Shown piece by piece: positions 7,230 through 57,738 of a stretch of 64,000 bases of DNA (position 1 is the stretch's first letter; each line of letters starts with the position of its first letter). A program made the translations under genes and the position numbers. The stretch is taken from assembly GCA_016191105.1 (NCBI GenBank), contig JACPPH010000002.1, positions 141,931 to 205,930 of the forward strand, read 5' to 3'. The stretch comes from Candidatus Saccharimonadota bacterium (lineage in GTDB: Bacteria; Patescibacteriota; Saccharimonadia; CAILAD01; BJGX01). The notes below the pieces were generated by a model. It was not told where the DNA came from. It worked only from the letters and a program-made list of their open reading frames with translations, and did not search any database.

Positions 7230-8647
7230 AATAGATTTTTAGCCGTTTCTAACCTTTTCAGTGACTCTTCTTTACCCAGAGTTGCAAAGATATCAAAAAG
7301 ACCTGGAGCCTCGGTGCGGCCGGTTAGGGCTATGCGTAAGGCATAAAATAGATTTCCGGTGTTTATATCACCCGCTTCGGCAAGTTTGCGTAGGGCTTTC
7401 TCGATAACATCGTGATTAAATTCAACATCTTTAAGATCGCTGGCAACAACCTCTAGCCAATTCTCAACATCTTCTGGCTTATCTTTCTTGGTTAGCAGCT
7501 CCTTATCAACTTTTGGCTCAGTAAAAAATATCTCCATAAGATACTCGGCGTCACTTAGCTTCTTTATACGGTCTTTATCGAGCTCTACAACTCGAGTTAG
7601 ATAATCGTTGTGTTTGTACCAACTCGCCGGCAAAAACGGCTCTAAGCGCTTTAAAAGCTCGTCTGTGGGTAACTCGCGTATGTATTCGCCATTCATCCAG
7701 GCCAGGCGATTAATATCAAATACCGCCGGGCTTTTTTGTACTCTATCCAAACTAAAACGTTTCACCAGTTCATCGTGGCTAAATATCTCTTGCTCGGTGC
7801 CGTCGTTCCAGCCTAAAAGTGCCAAAAAGTTCACCAGTGCCTCTGGCAAATAACCCTTTTCCTTATATTCCAAGACATCGACATCGCCATCGCGTTTACT
7901 GAGCTTCTTTTTGCCATCGGGGCCTAAGATTGGTGGCATATGCACAATTGTGGGTCGATCAATCTTTAGTAAGTCGTACAGTGCGGCATACTTTGGCATG
8001 GAGCTAATAAACTCATCACCACGAATAATATGGGTAATTTTCATTAGGTAATCATCAACAATATGGGCAAAGTTATAAGTTGGAAAGCCATCGGCCTTGA
8101 TTAGTATAAAATCATCTATTAGTTCGTTCTTTGTCTCAAACTCGCCCCTTAGCTCATCTTTCCACTTTGTGACTCCGGCTGGGACCTTCAGCCGTACTGG
8201 ATAACCATTCGTTTCCTTTGAGTGCTCTTCAGGCTCCATATTTTGTTTATAGACAAATGGCTTCTTGGTATCGATTGCGGCAGCTTTATGTGACTGAAAC
8301 TCTTCAGGGGTAATGTATGAATAATAAGCATTTCCCTGCTTAATTAACTTTTCGGCAAATTCTTGATAGTTTGGCAACCGCTTCGACTGCACATATGGAG
8401 CATGCTCGCCCGTTTCGGTATACCACACCCCTTCGTCGGGCTTAAGGCCAAGCCAATCAAGGCTTTTAACTATATGTGTGGCACCCCAGTCTACAAACCG
8501 CTCTCGATCAGTGTCTTCGAGGCGTAGAATAAAGCTACCCTTTTGATTTTTGGCAAATAAGTATGCAAACAGTGCTGTGCGAACATTGCCAACATGCAAA
8601 AACCCAGTTGGACTGGGTGCAAAACGAGTTCTAACAGGCTTGCTCAT
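7226..8647 (-). CDS. gltX: Glutamyl-tRNA synthetase
   Basis: 473 aa. N-terminus RTRFAPSPTGFLHVGNVRTALF (HIGH region) and KLSKRDG (KMSKS). Confidence 0.95.
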   Translation of the reverse strand: MSKPVRTRFAPSPTGFLHVGNVRTALFAYLFAKNQKGSFILRLEDTDRERFVDWGATHIVKSLDWLGLKPDEGVWYTETGEHAPYVQSKRLPNYQEFAEKLIKQGNAYYSYITPEEFQSHKAAAIDTKKPFVYKQNMEPEEHSKETNGYPVRLKVPAGVTKWKDELRGEFETKNELIDDFILIKADGFPTYNFAHIVDDYLMKITHIIRGDEFISSMPKYAALYDLLKIDRPTIVHMPPILGPDGKKKLSKRDGDVDVLEYKEKGYLPEALVNFLALLGWNDGTEQEIFSHDELVKRFSLDRVQKSPAVFDINRLAWMNGEYIRELPTDELLKRLEPFLPASWYKHNDYLTRVVELDKDRIKKLSDAEYLMEIFFTEPKVDKELLTKKDKPEDVENWLEVVASDLKDVEFNHDVIEKALRKLAEAGDINTGNLFYALRIALTGRTEAPGLFDIFATLGKEESLKRLETAKNLL

Positions 8648-33484: not shown

Positions 33485-33815
33485 AAGCTATAAGCTCCTT
33501 TCATAGAAGTATTAGTTAATTAAATAGCGTTCTCGTTCGGTTGTGTATATGCAATGTAAAAGGACTTTTGTATCTATTGAGCAGTAATGGTACTATATTA
33601 TACGCTTTAAGTCAATAGATAATTGTTATGTTTTTGCAGGGTTTTTCGAAAGGCCCTGAGATCAAGTTTTTTATGAAAGCCTGATCTCAAAGACTTATAG
33701 TTTCGGGTGGGTGTCGTCCCGGAGACCGAAGTCTCCAGGACGAGCGACACCCAAGAGTGGACTCTGTGTGCCATCGCACCGCGAATTGAGTCCGCTAATT
33801 CGCGGTGTTTAAGCC

Positions 33816-35306
33816 CTAGGCGGGCTTGGGCGACGGACCGGGCGGGGCCGTCGTGGGTGGCACCGGCGCCGAGCTGGGCGGCGTTGCCCTGGTGGTGGGC
33901 GGGCTTCCCCCCGGGCACAGCTGCGGACAACCGGTGCTCGGGTTCGGCACTCCTGGATTGATGTCCGGGTTGGGCGGCCTGGGGGTCACCCCACCGCAGC
34001 CACTTGGACCACAGCCTTTCACCGGCGCCGGCACAGCCGGATTGCTGATAGGCTGCTGCTCGGCGATCTTGCCCTGAGGCTTGGTCGTCGGCGTCGTCAC
34101 CGTCGGCGGTGGGATGGTCGGCCCTCCCGTCGGCGGGGGCGTCACCGTCGGCGGTGGGATTGTTGACTCCGGTGGCAGGTTTGGCGGAACCGGCACCTGC
34201 GGCACGTTCGGCGTGGGCTTGAGCGACCCCCTGTTCCCGCACGAGGCGAAGAACATGATGTATGCGTTGTCCTTCCAGAACTTCACGTACAGCCGGGGCG
34301 TGCTGGTGACGTAGTCGAACTGCACCACGGTACCGTTTTGCACGACTGTGTTGTACAGGCGGGTACCCGCTGGCAACACTCCACGTTCCACCATGGAACC
34401 TCGAACGAAGTCCAGCACGATGAACAGATCCCAACCGGCCTTGGCGGCATCGCCGACCGGGCGGGGGTCCTCGTAGGGCTTGTCTTGGCTGGCCATGATG
34501 GTCCGCGCCGCATCGTCCAAGAATGCCGGGCTGCCAACACCCTTCAGGAGCAAGTCGGAGAACATGTCCTCCGGCGTGTTTCCTTGGATGCCGTTGAGCA
34601 CAACACACTTGGTCTCACACGTCACGCCCACTCCCTGTACGAGGCCACGGCGCTGGGCAATCTTCTGAACGAAGATGGCAAGGTCGACGGTGTCGGGCTG
34701 ATGCGGTGGCGCCGTGCTTGGCGGTGTGGTAGCCATAGTTGTTGGCGCAGCTGTGCCTTGCGGTTGTGTCCCGCTCGGTACTGCCGTGGTGGTGGAAGGA
34801 GCCGTGGTGTCGCTGGGCGATGTGCTTGGCGTTGAACCACCCCCGTTGCTGGTGGTGGTAGTGACGCCGGCCAGGATTGCGACGCACTTGGTGTCTGGCG
34901 GGTCCACTCCGAGTTGCTTGAGCTTGTCGGAGCTTTCCTGCACCACCTTGGCGTCGTCGCTGCCAACTCCCTGGCACAACTCGACTGTCAGCTTGAGACA
35001 TTCGGTCGGCGTGATGCCGGCCTCTTGCAGCTTCTTGTCGTCGTCGGAGTTGTTGGTGACTCCGATCCGCTTCTGGCAGTCCTCCAGACTCACCTTGGCC
35101 TTGCGCTCTTCGGTGGTTGCGGGCGGAACAGACGCGGTCGGCGCTGGCACCTGGGTGGTGTCGGAGCCTTGAGGCCCAGGTGATTGCTGGGTTGGTTGGG
35201 CACTCGCAGTGCCGCTTTTGGCTGCAATACCGGCTACACCCACCGCCCCCAAAAGGACAGTGAACACAACCGCGCAAGCAGCGAAGATCGCATGACCCCT
35301 GGTCAT
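33816..35306 (-). CDS. Signal-anchored secreted protein, Pro/Thr-rich linkers, Cys-containing domains, unknown function
   Basis: ATG at 35306 preceded by GGAGGTGA. MTRGHAIFAACAVVFTVLLGAVGVAGIAA anchor, a globular middle, and a PPPTVTPPPTGGPTIPPPTVTT tail. The ORF-track upstream extension to 35387 has no SD. Followed by an 11-bp perfect hairpin at 33777-33807. Confidence 0.7.
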   Translation of the reverse strand: MTRGHAIFAACAVVFTVLLGAVGVAGIAAKSGTASAQPTQQSPGPQGSDTTQVPAPTASVPPATTEERKAKVSLEDCQKRIGVTNNSDDDKKLQEAGITPTECLKLTVELCQGVGSDDAKVVQESSDKLKQLGVDPPDTKCVAILAGVTTTTSNGGGSTPSTSPSDTTAPSTTTAVPSGTQPQGTAAPTTMATTPPSTAPPHQPDTVDLAIFVQKIAQRRGLVQGVGVTCETKCVVLNGIQGNTPEDMFSDLLLKGVGSPAFLDDAARTIMASQDKPYEDPRPVGDAAKAGWDLFIVLDFVRGSMVERGVLPAGTRLYNTVVQNGTVVQFDYVTSTPRLYVKFWKDNAYIMFFASCGNRGSLKPTPNVPQVPVPPNLPPESTIPPPTVTPPPTGGPTIPPPTVTTPTTKPQGKIAEQQPISNPAVPAPVKGCGPSGCGGVTPRPPNPDINPGVPNPSTGCPQLCPGGSPPTTRATPPSSAPVPPTTAPPGPSPKPA

Positions 35307-35529
35307 CCGATCACCTCCTTGTTGTTGTCTGGGTGATGTAAAGCTGCGAACTGGGTGCAGGTTTTCTCTCCTGTACTCAGCCCACATATCAGATTACACT
35401 CTTTTCGTCTATACACAAGTATAAATCTCACATTTGGGTTGAGCGGGTGGCGCCCGGCGGGAACTCGATCCGAAGATCGAAGCTCCCTGCCGGGACCACG
35501 AGGTAGGGGCCAGAACGTCATCCTGACCG

Positions 35530-36626: not shown

Positions 36627-37874
36627 CTAGTCGTCGGCGAAGACCTCCTCGATGATGTCGAAGAACGCGGCGTAGAACACGTCGCGATCGGACTCGAAGT
36701 CACCGTTGGGATACTTCTCGAGGTAGAGGTTGAGGGCGCAGAACGCCACATCGGTGATCCCTTCCTCACTGAACGACCATGGCTTGCGAAGCGGGTCGCG
36801 CGCCCACATGCCGACGGGTGTGCGCTCGATGCACTGCTTGGCTGTCGCCACACGCGCGTCGAAGTTCGGTGGCCGAACATTGGAGCGTTGCTGTCCCGAA
36901 GGACCGCCGCGCGAACCAGCACCCGAACCACTGCTACCACCCGGTCGACTCGACGAGCCGCCACTGGCGCCAGCACCCGACCCGGACTTGGGCCGTGCGC
37001 CTCTGCCAGAGGAGCCACCTTGCGAGCCGCGTGGTCGTTGCCCATTGCCGCCGTTGCGAACGAAGATCCCCTCGAGATTCTCTCGAGTGATGTCGTCGTT
37101 CCGGTCCGGATGGGCAAACGCCAAGACGCTTCGCCAGCAGAACTTGGCCCACTTCTTGCGGTCGCCGTAGGTGAACTTCTCGCCCTTCGGGTCCACCTTG
37201 CGAGCCTCGGCCTCGAAGATCACCATGATCTGGGTCATCCAACCCCGGTACTGGCGATACAAGTCCTGCTCTTCTGGTGTACGACGCGCGAAGGCGGTGA
37301 AGCGCGCCAGGTTGTCGTCGTCTCGTGGTGGCGCGCCGAACTCGGCATGCAAACCCTGGACACCCGAGAAGTTCTCGCGGATGCCAGAGATCGCGGTGTT
37401 CAGCTCTGTGATCTCTCGATCGTTCATGTCGTCTCCCTCCTGGGGGTCTTTGGTTCCCCCCGGAGGGGATGTAGGTTCTGGTTCTTCTGCAAGATCGAGC
37501 ATGAGCGTGACGATGCCACGCTTAACCATCTCGAAGCTGGCGTTGGCTTTGCGTGTCGCGTTGAGGTTGACCCCAACAATCCGACGCACGAGCCGCCACG
37601 GCTCGGGGTCTTGCTCGGTCGCTTGTACGGGTATGCCTTGTGCTTCGAGCCATGGCACCCAGTCTTCGTAGGAAAGGGTTGGCTCGGGGTCTTCGCCTTC
37701 TGGTGGTGTGTCACCTGCCCCTGAATCTTCAAGGACTTTACCAAGTGCCACCAAGAAGTCTTCTTCACCCACCTGTCCGTCATCGGCAAGCTTGTCGCCC
37801 AGTTCAACAATGAGCTTGGGCTTAAGGTCGATCGAAACTTCCAGGTCAGCACATAGCGTTTCGAGATGCGGCAT
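36627..37874 (-). CDS. Acidic 415-aa protein with a J-domain-like HPD motif and a Gly/Ser-rich linker, function unknown
   Basis: ATG at 37874 preceded by GAGGAGGG. KKWAKFCWRSVLAFAHPDRNDD (HPD codons 37112-37104) resembles DnaJ helix II plus the HPD loop. It is followed by a roughly 55-aa G/S/R-rich stretch and a C-terminal domain alignable to the 93-aa protein. Confidence 0.7.
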   Translation of the reverse strand: MPHLETLCADLEVSIDLKPKLIVELGDKLADDGQVGEEDFLVALGKVLEDSGAGDTPPEGEDPEPTLSYEDWVPWLEAQGIPVQATEQDPEPWRLVRRIVGVNLNATRKANASFEMVKRGIVTLMLDLAEEPEPTSPPGGTKDPQEGDDMNDREITELNTAISGIRENFSGVQGLHAEFGAPPRDDDNLARFTAFARRTPEEQDLYRQYRGWMTQIMVIFEAEARKVDPKGEKFTYGDRKKWAKFCWRSVLAFAHPDRNDDITRENLEGIFVRNGGNGQRPRGSQGGSSGRGARPKSGSGAGASGGSSSRPGGSSGSGAGSRGGPSGQQRSNVRPPNFDARVATAKQCIERTPVGMWARDPLRKPWSFSEEGITDVAFCALNLYLEKYPNGDFESDRDVFYAAFFDIIEEVFADD

Positions 37875-38124
37875 TGCTTCCCTCCTCGGGTAGTGCCCCG
37901 GGAGGGGCGTCTTGTTTACTGTTACCTACAGGAGCCTGCGTACGGCATTCAATCTTGGGCGGCAAGATCGCTTACACGTACACAGGTGCCTGTAGGCAGT
38001 TTGTAAACTAAAAAGCAGGTAAAATAGCCTGTTCTATACGAACAAGCAACCCTCCTGCCTACTTATTTAGGGAGCGGATATTTCAAATTGAACGATCCAT
38101 AGCCTAAGCTATGAACTCGGAAAC

Positions 38125-38153
38125 AATATACTACAAAACTATCGTTTTGTCAA
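38125..38153 (-). promoter_or_regulatory. Consensus sigma70-type promoter pointing into island 1
   Basis: Minus strand: TTGACA (38153-38148), a 17-nt spacer, then TATATT (38130-38125). Lies just after the stop of the 38164-38511 gene, about 250 nt upstream of the 415-aa start. Confidence 0.5.
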
Positions 38154-38163
38154 GTATTTTCTA

Positions 38164-39938: not shown

Positions 39939-41243
39939 TTATGCTGAGCCTAGCAGTTCTTTGAGCCTTGACTCAATTTGATCTGGCATATAGCTCCTGT
40001 GCCACTTTTTATAGTCGTAATCTGGGCGTGGAAACACAAAACGAGCCAATTCTGGATAGTCGCCGCTATCTTTGGCTATTTGCATGGCCGTGCGTACCTC
40101 GGCGATTTCGCCCACGCACTCTAGCGGCTTAATGCCATCTAAGCCTAACATCTGCTCGAAGGTACCACGTAAATTATTATCGGCAAACAAGTCGCGACCA
40201 TTGAATATCTCCATAAGCTCGGCTTTTTTTAGAAAAGGCGAGAATATAGTGTACACAAAGGCGCATTTAGGGCATTGGCCGCACCAGCTAAGCTTGTCTT
40301 TTTTATCCAAGTAAAAGTTACCATTGCAGCTCGAGAACAAGCCTTTGTATTTATCGAAGTAGTCTCGACAAAAAATCTCGGCAATTCGCAACTCGCTCAA
40401 AGGTCGCAAAACTGAATAAAAGTCCATATTAGCAGCTACATTATCTTTCAGGTATTTGTCCATAATAACCTCAAACATTGAGCTTTTTGAATATTGGTGG
40501 TTTACCGGCAGGTCTTTCCAGGTGGTGTTGGGTTCATCAGTTGAGGATTCAACCGCCCAAACCAAGCTCTTTTTGCCGGTTAAAATAGCCAAAACTGCCC
40601 CCATAAAGCCAATAATGGCCGTGACCGGCACATGACCGTTGTAGGCATCTTGCTCGTTAACCTCTTTTAGCTTGGGGTCGATTTGCCGGTTTATGCCAAA
40701 GCTTGGCTTGCCAATTTTATCTAGCAGGGGCTTAAACCGGTCGTGATGATAAACCACCCAGGTGAAATAATCCTCGCCTAACTTGTCTAACAACTCAGCG
40801 GCAACTATTGAATCCTTACCGCCTCCAACAGCCAGCAGCGAGCCTTTTAAATCTAGGCTTGGAGCCGGGCTGGCATGATCTGAACCCGCTGGAAACTTGG
40901 CAACCACAGCCGGATCAAGCTGGTTGGTATACAAAAACTGGCTTAAGCCATACAGATAAACGTCGTCGAAAAACGCCTTTTGAGCCGAATTAAGTCCACC
41001 TTTTTTAACGACTATCTCGGGTGCAAGATAAGCTTTGTAGTAACTAATGCCGGCCATTATCCACAAGCCAAACAAGACCCGATCGAATGCGGCTTGGTCG
41101 TAGCCTGCTGGATCGAGATTATCCCAGATTATTCGCTCCTCGAACTTAAGCTCGCCATCGAAGCTGTACTTTAAGGTCGCTATGTTAGCTTTGGTATCAA
41201 AGCTGTAATCTTCAAATATAAACTGTTTATACTTTGGCTTCAT
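39939..41243 (-). CDS. murL: PP-loop (GGGKDS) ATP-utilising protein; candidate MurL-type UDP-MurNAc-L-Ala-L-Glu epimerase
   Basis: 434 aa with a 4-nt overlap with murD. PP-loop-like LLAVGGGKDSIVAAELL and a CGQCPKC cluster. The gene order matches the published MurD2-MurL pair. Assigned by context and motif only. Confidence 0.45.
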   Translation of the reverse strand: MKPKYKQFIFEDYSFDTKANIATLKYSFDGELKFEERIIWDNLDPAGYDQAAFDRVLFGLWIMAGISYYKAYLAPEIVVKKGGLNSAQKAFFDDVYLYGLSQFLYTNQLDPAVVAKFPAGSDHASPAPSLDLKGSLLAVGGGKDSIVAAELLDKLGEDYFTWVVYHHDRFKPLLDKIGKPSFGINRQIDPKLKEVNEQDAYNGHVPVTAIIGFMGAVLAILTGKKSLVWAVESSTDEPNTTWKDLPVNHQYSKSSMFEVIMDKYLKDNVAANMDFYSVLRPLSELRIAEIFCRDYFDKYKGLFSSCNGNFYLDKKDKLSWCGQCPKCAFVYTIFSPFLKKAELMEIFNGRDLFADNNLRGTFEQMLGLDGIKPLECVGEIAEVRTAMQIAKDSGDYPELARFVFPRPDYDYKKWHRSYMPDQIESRLKELLGSA

Positions 41244-42565
41244 TTTAACTTTCTCACTGCTTCTATAAACTGATCGCCGCGGTCTTCGTAATTAGCAAAC
41301 ATATCAAAACTCTTGGCGCCAGGTGACAGCAACACGGCATCGCCGGCTTGAGACGACTTTGCGGACATCGTTACGGCTTCTGACATGTTTTGGGCCTTGG
41401 CATACTCAACCTTTCCGCCTAGTTGAGCGGCAAGACTATTGGTAGTGCTACCAATCAATATTATTTTTTTAACCTTATTATCTATAAGTTGTGACACTAA
41501 TTGGCTGTAGTCCTGATTGTCGTCTTGGCCGCCCAAAATTAATACTTTTGGCTTGCTAATAGCCTCTGTCGCCACCCTGGCGGCAGTTGGGTCTTTAGAT
41601 ATTGAGTCGTCAACATATTCGACACCGCCAATCTCACTAATAGTTTGTAACCTGTGTGGCAAGCCCCCAAATTCAGACAGCACCTTAGAGTAAACAGTCT
41701 GGCCATCCACCAGATCAAATACGGCTGCACAAGCAGCACAGACATTATCTAACACATGGGCTCCGCGCATTTTAACATCGGTGGTCTTGGCAACTTGGTG
41801 TTCACCAACCAAGATCCGACCATCTTCCACCCTCGCCGCAGCTGGGTCGGTAGAACCTCTATCAAACGGGATTTTTGTTTTAGCCTGCGAGGCTTCGGCG
41901 GCTTGCTTCACCTTCTCGTCGCCAGCATAGAAGACCGCTACATCATCGGGCTTTTGGTAGCAAAATATATTAGCCTTAGCCTGCATATAGCCTTCAACAC
42001 TAGGATGTATATCTAAGTGATCTGGCTCAATCATTAAGTGTACAGCTATGTGCGGACTTTGCTTGATGTCGGCTAATTGAAAACTAGACAGCTCAAAGAC
42101 CACCCAATCTTTGGCGCTAACTTGCCCTAAGCTTTCCAGTGGAGCATCACCGATATTGCCAATCAGATGAGCTGTTTTGCCATCGGCTTTTAAAAATTCT
42201 GCTATCAACGAACTTGTGGTGCTCTTACCTTTAGTGCCGGTAACGCCAATTATGGGAGCTGGGCACTTAGTAAAAAATTCTATGGTGTTCGAGGTGATGG
42301 GCGCCGTGGTTTTAATGCGATGTGGCAGAATATCGGCTGTGCGCACCACTAGATCGAAGTTGTCGAGCAAGCCTGCAAAATCGGTGTTGCGCAGGACCTC
42401 CTGTAACTCCACATTGGCTGGAAGATTGCGAATCGGTGAGTTTTGGGCTGCTTGGGGGTTTTTGTAGTAAAACACCGTGCAATCTGAGCCTTGATTGCGA
42501 AAATAATCTAAGGCCGCGCGACCCTCACGGTTGTAGCCTAGTATTGCAACTCTTTGGTTAGACAT
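41240..42565 (-). CDS. murD: UDP-N-acetylmuramoyl-L-alanine--glutamate ligase (MurD family; possibly the L-Glu-adding MurD2 type)
   Basis: 441 aa. Mur ligase P-loop GVTGTKGKSTT with central and C-terminal Mur ligase domains. Confidence 0.85.
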   Translation of the reverse strand: MSNQRVAILGYNREGRAALDYFRNQGSDCTVFYYKNPQAAQNSPIRNLPANVELQEVLRNTDFAGLLDNFDLVVRTADILPHRIKTTAPITSNTIEFFTKCPAPIIGVTGTKGKSTTSSLIAEFLKADGKTAHLIGNIGDAPLESLGQVSAKDWVVFELSSFQLADIKQSPHIAVHLMIEPDHLDIHPSVEGYMQAKANIFCYQKPDDVAVFYAGDEKVKQAAEASQAKTKIPFDRGSTDPAAARVEDGRILVGEHQVAKTTDVKMRGAHVLDNVCAACAAVFDLVDGQTVYSKVLSEFGGLPHRLQTISEIGGVEYVDDSISKDPTAARVATEAISKPKVLILGGQDDNQDYSQLVSQLIDNKVKKIILIGSTTNSLAAQLGGKVEYAKAQNMSEAVTMSAKSSQAGDAVLLSPGAKSFDMFANYEDRGDQFIEAVRKLK

Positions 42566-54479: not shown

Positions 54480-55460
54480 TAGAAATGAAGAAGGGGCCCG
54501 AAGACCAGTGGTCGCGATGATCTCGCGAACCCCTTCTTCAGACCCCTGTGGGGACTGTCCCGTGCTACTAGTCCGACCAGACTTCCGGTGCGCTGTGCCG
54601 GGTTTGCCGGGCGCCATGCCAGTCGGTCTCGAGCAGAACCCGATTGCTGGCCAAGTTCCACTCCAGACGAGGAACCCCCACCCATGTGCCGTCTGGCAGG
54701 CAGAGCTCATAGCCAGCCATCTCGACGTAGGGCAGACGCTTGCCATCCTGCTGCTGAAGCAGCTTGGGGTGGTAGGCGTAGGCCGCCAAGACCTCAGCGT
54801 GGGCCAAGTTCCTGGACTTCTTCTCGGATCGCTGACAGATGTTGCCAACCATCCGACCTTTCGAGGGCTCCCAGTTCGCCAACAGATCGATGTGGACCAG
54901 GTGGATGCCCCGCTCGTAGTTGCACGCAGAGGAGTTGAGACGGAGATGATCCGCATCGGCGCACATACGTTCGGCACGAGTGTTGTCATGATCAACGCGG
55001 ATCACTCGCCACCACGTCTCGAAGGTGGCATCGGGCGAGCCGAGGTCGACATAGAGCAGCAACAGGTCGTCGATCTGTTGCGCATGCTCCAGATCGTCCT
55101 CACTGAAGACACGCTCGAAGTCCTCGTCGCTGAGGGCGTAGTTCCAATACCCGGCGTTGTATTCACGCAGGAGCGCCATCTGCTCATGGATTGTCAACAG
55201 CTGAGCGTTGTAGCGGTCATACAGGCCCTCAACCGAGAACTTGCCGTCCACCAGAGCTTGCAGCCCCGCGATTGCCTCGTCAGCTGGACGCTTGCCACTC
55301 TTGACGAATTCGAAGAGGCGGTTGTACACCACCCCCAGGTCGCCGAGCTCCTGTCGTGTAGCTCTCTTGGCCATCTTAATGGCCTCCTTTGCCGGTGTTC
55401 ATCCACGCTTACACTGTGTCGTGCATCGTGGTCTCAAGCCTCAGCTTGAGAGCGGCGCTT
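54480..55460 (-). other. High-GC island 2: single ORFan gene between the CPBP protease gene and mreB
   Basis: 38/60 G+C at 54601-54660. Shadow ORFs on both strands. AT-rich backbone sequence on both flanks. Confidence 0.75.
54568..55374 (-). CDS. Hypothetical 268-aa cytoplasmic protein, no recognised family
   Basis: ATG at 55374 preceded by AAGGAGG. Balanced amino-acid composition, unlike the Arg/Pro-rich overlapping ORFs. A GC-rich compound hairpin at 54487-54539 lies 28 nt after the stop. Confidence 0.65.
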   Translation of the reverse strand: MAKRATRQELGDLGVVYNRLFEFVKSGKRPADEAIAGLQALVDGKFSVEGLYDRYNAQLLTIHEQMALLREYNAGYWNYALSDEDFERVFSEDDLEHAQQIDDLLLLYVDLGSPDATFETWWRVIRVDHDNTRAERMCADADHLRLNSSACNYERGIHLVHIDLLANWEPSKGRMVGNICQRSEKKSRNLAHAEVLAAYAYHPKLLQQQDGKRLPYVEMAGYELCLPDGTWVGVPRLEWNLASNRVLLETDWHGARQTRHSAPEVWSD

Positions 55461-55503: not shown

Positions 55504-56247
55504 TTATCTGATCCAACCGGCAAGCAAAGCAAAAGCCAGCAAGTTGTTGAGCATGTGCAAAAATATGCCAGGAACAATGCTTTTGAGCCGCATATACATT
55601 AAACTCAAGAACATACCCAGCAAGAAAGTATAAATAATTACATTGGGCTGAAAGTGCAAAACAGCAAACAATATGCTGCTACCAGCCGCCCCAATTAACC
55701 AACCCCAGCGGCGCACCAAGGTTGGCAAAATCACCCCCCGAAAGTATATCTCCTCGACTATAGGCACGATTACTACGGTCGAGGTAAAACTAAATGCTAG
55801 TCCTGCCCCTGACTTGCCAAATTCAAAGCCCACAGCCTGAGGTGCATCGGCATTAAAGCTTGGCCAAAGCACTTTTATAGCCACATAGCTGATTGCCACT
55901 AAAACGACTGTTAATATGTAGAACAATACAACATATCCGGCCGAGTTCAGTGGCTTAAACTTACGCAAGCCAAAGTCAACTAGCTTAAGCCCGTATTTTT
56001 GCTTTAACATGAGCAAAACCAGGAATTCGATGGCTACGGTAATCAGCGTGAGGCTCACCCCAGACCAATACGGGTCGGTAACAAAAAAACTACTTAAAAA
56101 GCCTGGGAGCAAGCGGCTTTTAGCCAAAATAATAAGCATAATATAAAAACCAACCGGCAAGGCAACTATCATTGCCAGCGCCTTGGCGGCATCGCGCAGC
56201 CGCCAAGCTACGCCGGCAATCGCAAGATCTTTGCGCAAGGGATCCAT
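55504..56247 (-). CDS. CPBP-family (CAAX-type) intramembrane glutamic protease
   Basis: Motifs EEIYFRG, FAVLHF, HMLNN. The start is uncertain: ATG at 56247 or 56328, or TTG at 56379. Confidence 0.7.
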   Translation of the reverse strand: MDPLRKDLAIAGVAWRLRDAAKALAMIVALPVGFYIMLIILAKSRLLPGFLSSFFVTDPYWSGVSLTLITVAIEFLVLLMLKQKYGLKLVDFGLRKFKPLNSAGYVVLFYILTVVLVAISYVAIKVLWPSFNADAPQAVGFEFGKSGAGLAFSFTSTVVIVPIVEEIYFRGVILPTLVRRWGWLIGAAGSSILFAVLHFQPNVIIYTFLLGMFLSLMYMRLKSIVPGIFLHMLNNLLAFALLAGWIR

Positions 56248-56658
56248 GGCTTTATTATAGCCGAATGCACCTAGATGTTTTAGCGGCATTACAGCAAACA
56301 GGAAGCCAAAGAGGTTGGTGTGCTCCATGTTCGAGGACTGTTTGAGCATAAGTGAGTTCCGTAGAGCTGGAAGCAACAAGCTCTTTGGTGCTCTTGACTA
56401 GCGTCCATGCCGGCAGTTTTGGCTTAACTTTTTGCTGTCAAAAAGTAAGTCGGCCATTCGGCCGAAACTGAGTCTTGCGCTGTCCGCGCGGGACTTCTTT
56501 GAGTGAGCAAAGAAGCAAACTCACCGACATGGGCTCAAATCTAGAATCACAAAGTTGTCTTCACTTTCTGTTCTGCGACAGAGACGGCACTCGTGCTCGA
56601 ACAGAAGCATTCAGACAACTTTGCTTTCTGATTTTCGAATGTCGGAGAACTACGGTAA

Positions 56659-57738
56659 TTAGCGCAGTCGGTTTATGTCAGATATACTCACTACAATCAG
56701 CAGTATAATTAAGGCTGCAAAACCCAAAACGTGCACCAGGTTTTCGCGCGCCGGAGTAATCTTAACTCCAACCCGGCGCAAGATTATCAGTAGCTCTCGG
56801 CCACCATCAAGCGCCGGTAGTGGCAGGGCATTTATTACCGCTAGGCTCAATGATATCGAGGCCACAAACACCAATATGTAGCGCCAGCCAAACTGAATGA
56901 TCTGCGAGAAGATCGAGACAATACCAATTGGCCCAGCTACCTGCTCACTGACCTTGGCTTGAGTAAACAGACCGACAATTAGGCCAGCAAAAGCACCTAT
57001 TGTGGCCTCAACAAGCTGCCAAACCACCACCACCGCGGCAACCGGTGCCTGCCACCATGAATAACGCATAAGCTGCAAACTATCTGAGGCCACGCCTAAG
57101 TTGCCCTTGTTTGGATCGGTACCGAGTGTCGCTGTTGCCGTGTGCTCGCCCTGCGAGTTCTTGTAAACCAGAGTTATCTGTTGTCCGCCATGAGATTTGG
57201 TAAAGTCCTGCAACTGCTGATTGCTACTCAACATCTGGCCATTCACAGAAACCAGTTGGTCGGCCGTCTTGAGGCCGGAGCGGGCGGCGGCCGAGTTGGG
57301 CGTTACGGCCAAAACCGTTAGCTTGGCCTCGCCAATAGGTGCGGGCTGAATCGGGCCGAAACTTGGTAAGCCGCTTGGCAGCAATGGCGGCATGCCAACA
57401 ATAAGTAGAAATGTAATCAATAAATAAGCAATCAAAAGATTCATGGTAACGCCTGCCATTACGATCTTGGTCTTTACCCAAGCCGACTTGCTGGCAAAAC
57501 TGTCGGCACCCTTGGCCTCGCCATCTTCGCCTTTGAGGCGCACAAAGCCACCAATTGGAAAGGTGTTTATGCTAAACAAGGTACCGTTACTCTTACGACC
57601 CCATAGCCGCGGCGGAAAACCAACGCCAAACTCATCGACTTTTACGCCGTTGCGGCGGGCAGCCTTATAGTGCCCCCATTCATGAGCAATCACTAATACC
57701 GAGAACACCAACAGAACCAGAACAATCGTTAAGATCAT
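56659..57738 (-). CDS. rseP: Site-2 (M50) zinc metalloprotease RseP with PDZ domain
   Basis: 359 aa. HEWGHY (HExxH) in the first TM, PDZ segment, C-terminal NALPLPALDGG. Confidence 0.85.
   Translation of the reverse strand: MILTIVLVLLVFSVLVIAHEWGHYKAARRNGVKVDEFGVGFPPRLWGRKSNGTLFSINTFPIGGFVRLKGEDGEAKGADSFASKSAWVKTKIVMAGVTMNLLIAYLLITFLLIVGMPPLLPSGLPSFGPIQPAPIGEAKLTVLAVTPNSAAARSGLKTADQLVSVNGQMLSSNQQLQDFTKSHGGQQITLVYKNSQGEHTATATLGTDPNKGNLGVASDSLQLMRYSWWQAPVAAVVVVWQLVEATIGAFAGLIVGLFTQAKVSEQVAGPIGIVSIFSQIIQFGWRYILVFVASISLSLAVINALPLPALDGGRELLIILRRVGVKITPARENLVHVLGFAALIILLIVVSISDINRLR

Follow-up and report, generated by a model that had tools for sequence, protein, structure and literature searches.

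A dyad-symmetric hairpin module between rseP and a CPBP protease gene of a Saccharibacterium, inverted relative to its neighbors in a related species

The genes for the site-2 protease RseP and for a CPBP/Rce1-like intramembrane protease are adjacent in 28 loci retrieved from Saccharibacteria and the candidate phyla radiation (CPR), with the CPBP reading frame almost always opening at or before the rseP stop codon. In a 64,000-nucleotide stretch of a Candidatus Saccharimonadota genome (assembly GCA_016191105.1, contig JACPPH010000002.1; hereafter the window, whose first base is position 1), the same two genes are held apart by a long spacer rich in hairpins, which raises the question of what this spacer is, how it came to lie at this junction, and what its structure may be kept for. 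An earlier note on this DNA had drawn attention to a structured element of ~210 nt at 56414–56623 and proposed a 6S-like RNA, a cis-regulatory leader, a new small RNA (sRNA), or a DNA-level element. The analysis described here shows a clade-restricted, dyad-symmetric noncoding module whose helices, as judged from the comparison of two copies, are under purifying selection, and which occurs in both orientations relative to its neighbors in related species. As to its role, an array of RNA hairpins acting at the end of the rseP operon transcript is favored, albeit tentatively, over the alternatives weighed below.

Extent, folding, and conservation of the module

The comparison rests on a homologue reached through the CPBP protein P0122 (71% identical to that of the window), which is encoded on two contigs of the European Nucleotide Archive (ENA), L090 and L091. 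The extent of the spacer depends on where the CPBP gene begins. The deposited annotation gives a protein of 281 aa (P0121) with its start at 56349, while the longest open reading frame (ORF) reaches 291 aa from a TTG at 56379; the orthologues are 247 aa long and align from residue 1 to the methionine encoded by the ATG at 56247, where the conserved TATAAT-N6-ATG arrangement also points. Both upstream starts lie within the noncoding spacer, and the annotated N-terminus is translated spacer, its first codons coming from within the hairpin denoted A below. Given the start at 56247, the noncoding spacer spans 56248–56658, i.e. 411 nt, rather than the 280 bp originally assumed.

Within this spacer, the structured module of ~375 bp (~56286–56645) consists of two long hairpins, A and D, which flank four short ones, B1, B2, C1, and C2 (Table 1). 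All six stems listed in the earlier note are present at the positions given there, namely ACTTTTTG/CAAAAAGT at 56427–56446, GGCC/GGCC at 56452–56463, CTTCTTTG/CAAAGAAG at 56494–56515, CAAAGTTGTCT/AGACAACTTTG at 56550–56560 with 56613–56623, and TTCTGTTC/GAACAGAA at 56566–56573 with 56599–56606, together with the outer pairing CAGTTT/AAACTG (56414–56419 with 56465–56470). The latter has no counterpart in L090, unlike the other hairpins. The element as first delimited is real but too small, in that hairpin A and the closing stems of hairpin D had been missed. Hairpin A contains a covarying stem (56305–56332 with 56364–56389) and a conserved inner part (TTCGAGGACTGT ... AGTGAGTTCCG), and hairpin D is built from the stems CCGACAT/ATGTCGG, AAATC.AGAA/TTCT.GATTT, CAAAGTTGTCT/AGACAACTTTG, and TTTCTGTTC/GAACAGAAG. 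The invariant block of Table 1 is made up of the loop and 3' arm of C2 and of the linker CAAACTCA, which leads into hairpin D. The module as a whole is roughly dyad-symmetric: the reverse complement of hairpin A resembles hairpin D, the A–B half aligns in the window to the reverse complement of the C–D half (z 7.7), and a covariance model of the C–D half matches the reverse complement of the A–B half with 26.9 bits (E 5e-6). Because A and D are closed by related stems with AATCAGAAAG-like motifs, the two ends of the module are inverted repeats of one another.

The fold is far from random. The 279-nt gap has a folding energy of −104.8 kcal/mol (z −5.7) on the plus strand and of −104.0 kcal/mol (z −5.5) on the minus strand, values that no sequence among 200 dinucleotide shuffles attains; for the full 414 nt the z-scores are −6.1 and −4.7, respectively, and for the L090 spacer −9.0 and −8.3 on its two strands. 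The other spacers of the window were compared by regressing folding energy on GC content and by shuffling each spacer. Among the 12 spacers of at least 150 nt, nine fall between z ~+0.6 and −4.2, and three stand out: that of the module (−5.9/−5.1 on plus/minus), 33485–33815 (−5.2/−7.1), and 37725–38163 (−6.0/−10.4). The density of stems, described earlier as far above that of other spacers, is thus genuine and unusual, yet two of the 12 equal or exceed it.

The two strands fold alike. Consensus folding yields 86 pairs for each of them; the energies are −80.3 kcal/mol on one and −79.2 kcal/mol on the other, and 18 and 21 of the pairs, respectively, are compensatory. L090 likewise folds equally on both, with 10 G-U pairs per strand. 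The individual long hairpins of the window do differ, A folding better on the plus strand (z −3.4 vs −1.3) and D on the minus strand (z −6.9 vs −4.7), and the G-U pairs lean the same way; these preferences are not reproduced in L090, and because of its symmetry no strand was assigned from the G-U pairs. The weak preference for the plus strand voiced before does not survive this comparison, while the caution about the strand that came with it was well placed.

The evidence for selection comes from the alignment of the two copies, which are 66% identical (236 of 358 aligned bases), as compared with 40–46% at the third codon positions of the flanking genes. In an alignment made with MAFFT from sequence only, RNAalifold finds all 86 pairs formed in both copies, 18 of them with both sides changed, vs 0–2 such pairs, and pairing of ~40%, in slid controls in which the partners were moved by 1–3 columns. 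These double changes are spread over the long hairpins, with nine in helices 1–4 of hairpin A and eight in helices 8–11 of hairpin D, where no pair is broken; helix 6 (C1) carries one compensatory change from G-C to A-U together with two one-sided wobble changes, and helix 7, the stem of C2, is invariant. In B1, two adjacent pairs are swapped in L090 with pairing kept, as read directly from the sequences, MAFFT being one base off at this place. An alignment of the C–D half fitted to the model has nine of 46 pairs changed on both sides. These pair counts overstate the evidence, since the structure was derived from the same two sequences. In a less circular comparison, in which the minimum-free-energy structure of the window is transferred to L090 through the MAFFT alignment, 60 of its 124 pairs are unchanged, 15 are compensatory, 10 are kept with a one-sided change, and 38 are broken, the latter being probably in part misaligned covarying stems and in part window-specific helices. 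The core of the earlier proposal, a structured noncoding element, is borne out, and the caveat that it may be a DNA-level element was apt.

That the element is noncoding follows from its insertions and deletions relative to L090, whose lengths of 1, 11, 1, 23, 1, and 6 nt are incompatible with a coding region. A concatenated six-frame translation of the spacer has no match at E ≤ 10 among 5.8 billion proteins. A 30-aa ORF on the minus strand (MSVSLLLCS...) was considered and rejected; its apparent conservation in L090 is seen only through the DNA, and its substitutions track the hairpins and not the codons. As Saccharibacteria have tiny, densely packed genomes (~92% coding here by a crude ORF call), 375 bp of selected noncoding DNA are probably functional.

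A known RNA family was not recognized. With the 4227 covariance models of Rfam 15 at the gathering threshold, the whole window yields nothing except two tRNAs; at E ≤ 10 nothing is found within 56200–56800, and no match falls within the element in L090, L091, or L001, a further carrier contig. ARAGORN adds neither a tmRNA nor an extra tRNA in the window. The earlier suggestion of 6S, tmRNA, RNase P, SRP, or another Rfam RNA is thus not upheld by the scan, even at E ≤ 10, for the window or its homologue.

Table 1. Coordinates of the module, its parts, and the adjoining genes in the window
Feature	Position	Strand	Description
CPBP/Rce1-like intramembrane protease gene	55504–56247	-	247 aa; Pfam PF02517
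CPBP-side flank	56248–56284	-	Collinear with L090 and L091; -10 box TATAAT (56259–56254), 6 nt ahead of the CPBP ATG
Hairpin A	56286–56410		Extended hairpin of ~125 nt; closing stem GCAT/ATGC
Hairpin B1	56427–56446		ACTTTTTG-CTGT-CAAAAAGT; in L090 ACTTTTGT-GACG-ACAAAAGT
Hairpin B2	56450–56465		TCGGCC-ATTC-GGCCGA; stem identical in L090, where the loop is AAG
Hairpin C1	56470–56496		GAGTCTTGCGC-TGTCC-GCGCGGGACTT; GC-rich
Hairpin C2	56494–56515		CTTCTTTG-AGTGAG-CAAAGAAG; stem invariant, loop GATGAG in L090
Invariant block	56504–56529		26 nt, the same in the window and L090 (TGAGCAAAGAAGCAAACTCACCGACA)
Hairpin D	56524–56645		Extended hairpin of 122 nt, ~40 bp
Short flank after rseP stop	56646–56658	-	TTACCGTAGTTCT; collinear with L090 (TACTGTAGCTTTT) and outside the inverted block (end-by-end local alignments, MAFFT)
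rseP	56659–57738	-	Site-2 protease (M50 and PDZ); Pfam PF02163 and PDZ domains

Insertion and inversion at the rseP–CPBP junction

The module is carried by the lineage of the window and by a sister clade (L090/L091 and, in part, L001); it is absent from L002, L093, and at least 26 further loci. L002, whose RseP is 71% identical to that of the window, shows a clean empty site, TAA-AAT-ATG, and in L093 (RseP 63% identical) the two genes are one base apart. Because these relatives lack the spacer, the 411 nt are an insertion into a normally fused gene pair. Genome scans with RseP did not extend the set of carriers: that with the single protein found nothing, and the alignment-based one recovered only distant relatives, none with the element. 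A second copy was likewise not found in the window itself, in 94 loci (585 kb) plus the window searched by nhmmer with a profile hidden Markov model of the pair, or in the window and 88 loci (620 kb) searched with the covariance model, although as a test of copy number these searches are weak, covering only ~8% of a genome of the size generally known for Saccharibacteria. No similar sequence was found by BLAST in distant mode in phage and plasmid collections, nor by three exact-pattern scans of viral contigs; a metagenome scan with both arms of the 11-bp stem gave six matches, all of them unrelated chance palindromes, and was set aside.

The spacer of L090, 489 nt long, is homologous to that of the window with its central block inverted. 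Positions 56469–56572 of the window match L090 743–638 in inverted orientation (81% over 107 nt, E 6e-22) and positions 56351–56468 match L090 613–497, also inverted (69%), such that the window plus strand can be aligned end to end to the CPBP-sense strand of L090, while the coding flanks of rseP and CPBP have the same orientation in both. When each end is aligned separately, the terminal arms prove to be swapped as well, and collinearity is limited to ~13 nt beyond the rseP stop codon and ~37 nt ahead of the CPBP ATG (TATAATAAAGCCATG in the window vs TATAATGAAGTCATG in L090 and L091). Hairpin D therefore adjoins rseP in the window and CPBP in L090, whereas hairpin A adjoins CPBP in the window and rseP in L090 and L001. 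This is not a misassembly, because the junctions are confirmed independently: those of the window species, from rseP to D and from A to CPBP, are covered by two independent Logan contigs (L083 and L092), that from D to CPBP of the other species is covered by L091, and L001, which comes from a third species (93% identity to L090 at the C-terminus of RseP), ends in GGCATTAAGCCAATCAGAAA, the beginning of arm A, beside rseP.

The ends of the module in the window match each other as inverted repeats over ~55 nt at ~70% (score 38), with a shared core AA(A/T)CAG(A/G)AAG(C)CAAAG that is imperfect (~13/18); in L090 there is a 9-bp outer stem, TTGTCGCTT/GAGCGGCAA. Since the outer arm sequences (GGCATTA... 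vs CCGACAT...) have changed sides too, the breakpoints of the inversion lie outside the shared core. Target-site duplications are represented by weak candidates only, ACTGTAGCT and ACTCGAGCT in L090 and, in the two genomes alike, NTAG at either side.

Short-read Logan contigs from three samples (L083, L092, and L001) break inside the module or at its edge. L083 ends at 56585, at the apical loop of hairpin D, and L092 begins at 56432, 4–5 nt from the center of B1. Taken as evidence of inversion, these breaks were discarded for the window species, where they fall at hairpin centers and not at repeat edges; they look like an effect of strong hairpins on sequencing or assembly, and the element is therefore probably under-represented in assemblies.

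The history of the insertion depends on which gene is consulted. By RseP, the proteins of L001 and L002 (P0002 and P0003) are 78% identical to each other and either is 71–72% identical to that of the window; by CPBP, the identity between L090 and L002 is 66%, i.e. lower than that between the window and L090. The two proteins (P0002/P0003 for RseP vs P0122/P0123 for CPBP) thus disagree as to which are closest among the window, L090/L001, and L002, which may reflect recombination or uneven evolutionary rates around the junction. Given this ambiguity, the history may have involved a single gain, with a later precise loss and an inversion, or else two insertions into one junction.

Possible roles of the module

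In the window, the module follows a row of minus-strand genes, tsf, frr, uppS, and rseP, the last being the final conserved gene of the row rpsB-tsf-frr-uppS-rseP (stop codon at 56659–56661), and precedes the CPBP gene. The window RseP is 100% identical to a protein named by NCBI as a Candidatus Saccharibacteria site-2 protease. Just outside the module, between it and the CPBP ATG, a leaderless-type −10 box is conserved, with TATAAT and the ATG separated by 6 nt in the window as well as in L090 and L091. TATAAT, or a one-mismatch version, followed by N6/7-ATG also precedes gltX, prfA, frr, lysS, the gene of a Mur ligase (41240–42565), a second mreB, and others in the window. Many genes there start 6–7 nt past such a box and lack a Shine–Dalgarno sequence (e.g. 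at 8647, 14849, 23336, 32130, 42565, 49166, and 59010), and others have a classical GGAGG site. This pattern suggests that leaderless mRNAs may be widespread in this Saccharibacterium; since the arrangement is common in the window, starts of the leaderless type seem normal for these genes, and CPBP is probably served by a promoter of its own in the carriers of the module. Within the module, a promoter scan combined with a reading of the alignment revealed no conserved pair of −10 and −35 boxes and no conserved sigma-70-like promoter; the only promoter candidates are in the CPBP-side flank.

A terminator scan gave one terminator-like site on the operon-sense (minus) strand, formed by B2, TCGGCCGAATGGCCGA, followed by CTTACTTTTT; the tail that matches CTTACTTTTT in L090, CCGACTTTTG, is weaker, and the U tracts are weak and partly conserved. 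On the plus strand, hairpin D is followed by CTTTCTGATTTT in the window only. Owing to the dyad symmetry, terminator-like GC hairpins are present on both strands. A cis-regulatory leader such as that proposed before would, if it served CPBP, be expected to keep a fixed orientation and place upstream of the gene and to act on its sense strand; the opposite orientations that the module takes with respect to CPBP in the window and in L090 are hard to square with such a leader, and the conserved −10 box, moreover, lies downstream of the module.

The explanation tentatively preferred here is that of an orientation-independent array of RNA hairpins, which would end, process, stabilize, or insulate the transcript of the rseP operon. 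The module would have no promoter of its own and would be transcribed through read-through from rpsB-tsf-frr-uppS-rseP; because it is symmetric, either orientation gives the same kind of array at the 3' end of the operon transcript, in the order of a long helix, an AU hairpin, two GC hairpins each with a U-rich stretch, another AU hairpin, and a second long helix. Such an array may stop or process the operon transcript and protect its 3' end, and CPBP would then be uncoupled from the operon and expressed from its own leaderless promoter. This explanation draws on the nonrandom fold, the insertion, the signs of selection, the noncoding character, the inversion, and the strand symmetry, as well as on the GC hairpin with its U run in the operon sense, the lack of an internal promoter, and the conserved promoter of CPBP. 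It has to be noted that several points weigh against it. The steps of read-through, termination, and processing are themselves inferred; with two full copies, the covariation amounts to a single pairwise comparison. The ~375 nt of the module, its conserved loops, and the 26-nt invariant block far exceed what a terminator or stabilizer needs, and the U-rich tails of the GC hairpins are poor, with only partial conservation in L090. An insulator also seems unneeded, since leaderless promoters elsewhere in this genome lie inside upstream genes and have no insulator, as that of frr after tsf. Finally, a mobile element would account at least as naturally for the absence from L002 together with the two orientations.

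The latter alternative, a nonautonomous miniature inverted-repeat transposable element (MITE) or another palindromic mobile element that enters or leaves the rseP–CPBP junction in either orientation, and whose hairpins would be kept for transposition or for its processing by the host and would serve no host function, is possible but rather unlikely. It would account for the presence or absence of the module at an otherwise invariant gene junction, with the clean empty site in L002, which groups by RseP with the carriers L001 and L090, such that a precise loss or two independent gains have to be assumed; for the opposite orientation of the whole module including its terminal arms; for the terminal inverted repeats, imperfect as they are (~55 nt in the window, the outer stem in L090); and for the overall dyad symmetry. 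However, the CPBP signal, with the window closer to L090 than L002 is, unsettles the argument from loss or double gain, and two independent insertions at exactly one junction are unlikely. The module is also a single copy within the part of the genome, the 94 loci, and the phage, plasmid, and viral collections that were searched, has no convincing target-site duplication, and is not accompanied by an integrase, resolvase, or transposase domain in the more than 50 proteins of the window (Pfam; PHROGs for the orphan proteins), while its 66% identity and compensatory changes across hosts with saturated silent sites look like long vertical retention. The motif TAGCGT of rolling-circle plasmid single-strand origins was considered in passing and rejected, being present in the window copy and absent from L090. 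A further view, already disfavored, takes the spacer for a functionless leftover, i.e. a decayed insertion or palindrome that owes its structure to its origin rather than to selection. Its very narrow distribution and the lack of an assignable function would suit such a leftover, as would the fact that the two other hairpin-rich spacers of the window flank a GC-rich, apparently foreign island; against these stand the excess of identity over silent sites, the 18 double substitutions that keep pairing where slid controls have 0–2, the invariant block, and the streamlined genome, which together make this view highly improbable.

The symmetry of the module can also be read as that of RNA genes. 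One or two free-standing sRNAs, possibly a convergent pair of paralogues of ~180–210 nt, one per strand and each consisting of a long hairpin, an AU hairpin, and a GC hairpin, would make inversion of the cassette harmless and would explain why the function is independent of orientation, why the two halves are inverted paralogues, and why the helices with compensatory changes are accompanied by conserved loops and a conserved linker. Consistent with that, hairpin A of the window folds better on the plus strand and hairpin D on the minus strand, a GC hairpin with a U run lies on the minus strand, and the palindromic −10 box beside CPBP (TATAATA/TATTATA) could also fire toward the module. Yet neither the block nor its two flanks hold a conserved −10 box suitably spaced from either long hairpin, the terminators are noncanonical, the strand preferences are not reproduced in L090, and no Rfam family matches, which leaves this alternative unlikely. 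A phase-variable inverton, in which a recombinase encoded elsewhere would flip the module and thereby alter how far transcription of the rseP operon reaches CPBP, would accommodate both orientations at the same locus in related species, the inverted-repeat ends with their shared core, the place just past an operon and immediately ahead of a gene, the equal folding of both strands, as expected if both are transcribed, and the several short-read contigs that stop inside the module or at its edge. In the assembled contigs, however, the two orientations are seen between species only and never within one sample, the contigs of each species being in agreement; L083 extends into the module for 65 nt and shows no branch at the outer edge, and the contigs end at hairpin centers and not at repeat boundaries. 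In addition, the repeats are imperfect and the breakpoints do not fall in their core, no promoter is evident inside the module, and no recombinase is found among the proteins of the 64-kb window, although one may be encoded elsewhere in the genome. No paper in the literature searched mentions both Patescibacteria and an inverton, and no invertible promoter of this group appeared among the top matches for phase variation in Saccharibacteria. An inverton is hence distinctly improbable. Slightly more so is a self-contained cassette of changing orientation, whether flipped by a recombinase from elsewhere in the genome or excised and reinserted, that would rewire the link between the essential rpsB–rseP operon and CPBP.

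Neighboring features and comparison with known systems

Next to CPBP, on the side of mreB, the window carries a GC-rich (~0.6) orphan ORF of 268 aa (54568–55374, minus strand) with no match in Pfam or PHROGs. It is absent from L090, where CPBP is directly followed by a promoter and the apparent start of the next gene, presumably mreB, and it represents a second lineage-specific insertion adjoining CPBP. The two other outlying spacers lie farther away. The most structured spacer of the window, 37725–38163 on the minus strand (z −9.5 for 37860–38163), opens with a good promoter, TTGACA-17-TATATT, and closes with a hairpin, CCCCUCCCGGGG...CCCGAGGAGGG, in which the GGAGG ribosome-binding site of the GC-rich gene 36627–37874 is sequestered; it looks like a leader of ~260 nt, putatively of the riboswitch or thermosensor type, and has no Rfam match at E ≤ 10. 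The spacer at 33485–33815, which contains several long perfect GC-rich hairpins such as GGGTGTCGCTCGTCCTGGAGAC...GTCTCCGGGACGACACCC and gives only subthreshold, chance matches in Rfam, lies at the other end of the same GC-rich island, which extends over 33.7–37.9 kb. There, and also at 9.5–10.5 kb, the GC content is 0.57–0.64, vs ~0.47 elsewhere in the window. The long minus-strand ORFs of the island (33816–35387, 36627–37874, and others) belong to no Pfam or PHROGs family, and the island is probably of foreign origin, a possible source being the high-GC Actinobacteria on which Saccharibacteria live.

The significance of the module lies in that it splits two genes which, in 28 other members of the group, are joined end to end, and in that its helices have outlasted a divergence that saturated silent sites while the module works, or at least is tolerated, in either orientation. 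If it acts as RNA, it would represent an unclassified family limited to a narrow clade, and if it flips or moves, a rare programmed or mobile rearrangement in this bacterial group. A switch or cassette, if real, would be the first phase-variation-like switch or domesticated mobile cassette of RNA structure in the ultra-small, host-dependent Saccharibacteria, with the dyad-symmetric six-hairpin RNA as a new class of structured RNA selected on both strands. The practical gains are a corrected start of CPBP, the recognition that leaderless-type starts are common, and two further strongly structured spacers flagged for attention.

Among known systems, the Correia elements of Neisseria, the ERIC/IRU elements of enterobacteria, and the BOX and RUP elements of pneumococcus are intergenic, palindromic or MITE-like, and co-transcribed with genes. 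They are noncoding, a few hundred base pairs long or less, have inverted-repeat ends, and form long hairpins on either strand; they occur in either orientation, are present or absent at orthologous sites, and can terminate or stabilize mRNAs or supply them with RNase III sites. The module shares with them its noncoding character, the inverted-repeat ends, folding on either strand, occurrence in either orientation, and presence or absence at one site. Those families number tens to hundreds of copies per genome, whereas the module is a single copy in the ~620 kb searched and has been conserved over a long time at a single locus with compensatory changes, no sequence similarity to those families having been looked for or seen.

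Invertible switches of Clostridioides difficile measure 150–400 bp, are bounded by near-perfect inverted repeats, and lie between an upstream promoter and a gene, where their orientation sets termination ahead of the gene; both orientations coexist within one population, and the recombinase is known. Examples are the switches of cwpV and flgB (PMC7446863, PMC5914908). These lie in a 5' untranslated region and are flipped by RecV. The module falls in the same range of size, lies between an operon and a gene, and has inverted-repeat ends; it differs in its imperfect repeats, in breakpoints outside the shared core, in orientations seen only between species, and in the absence of a recombinase from the window.

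Stable intercistronic helices that act through their structure, and for which the exact sequence matters little, are also known from REP/BIME hairpins and from RNase III sites such as those of the T7 early mRNA, which are single hairpins of 30–60 nt. The module resembles these in that stable, nearly perfect Watson–Crick helices stand between cistrons of one transcription unit, and departs from them as a 375-nt array of six hairpins with conserved loops and a 26-nt invariant block. With the Rfam RNAs of 200–400 nt (6S, RNase P RNA, tmRNA, SRP RNA, raiA, HEARO, and OLE), it has in common its size and high degree of structure, and it matches none of their models; 6S in particular is a single interrupted helix with a central bubble, as opposed to two long and four short hairpins here. 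The module is thus a member of no described family and, while lacking the defining features of any one of them, resembles at once the palindromic elements, the switches in untranslated regions, and the intercistronic hairpins.

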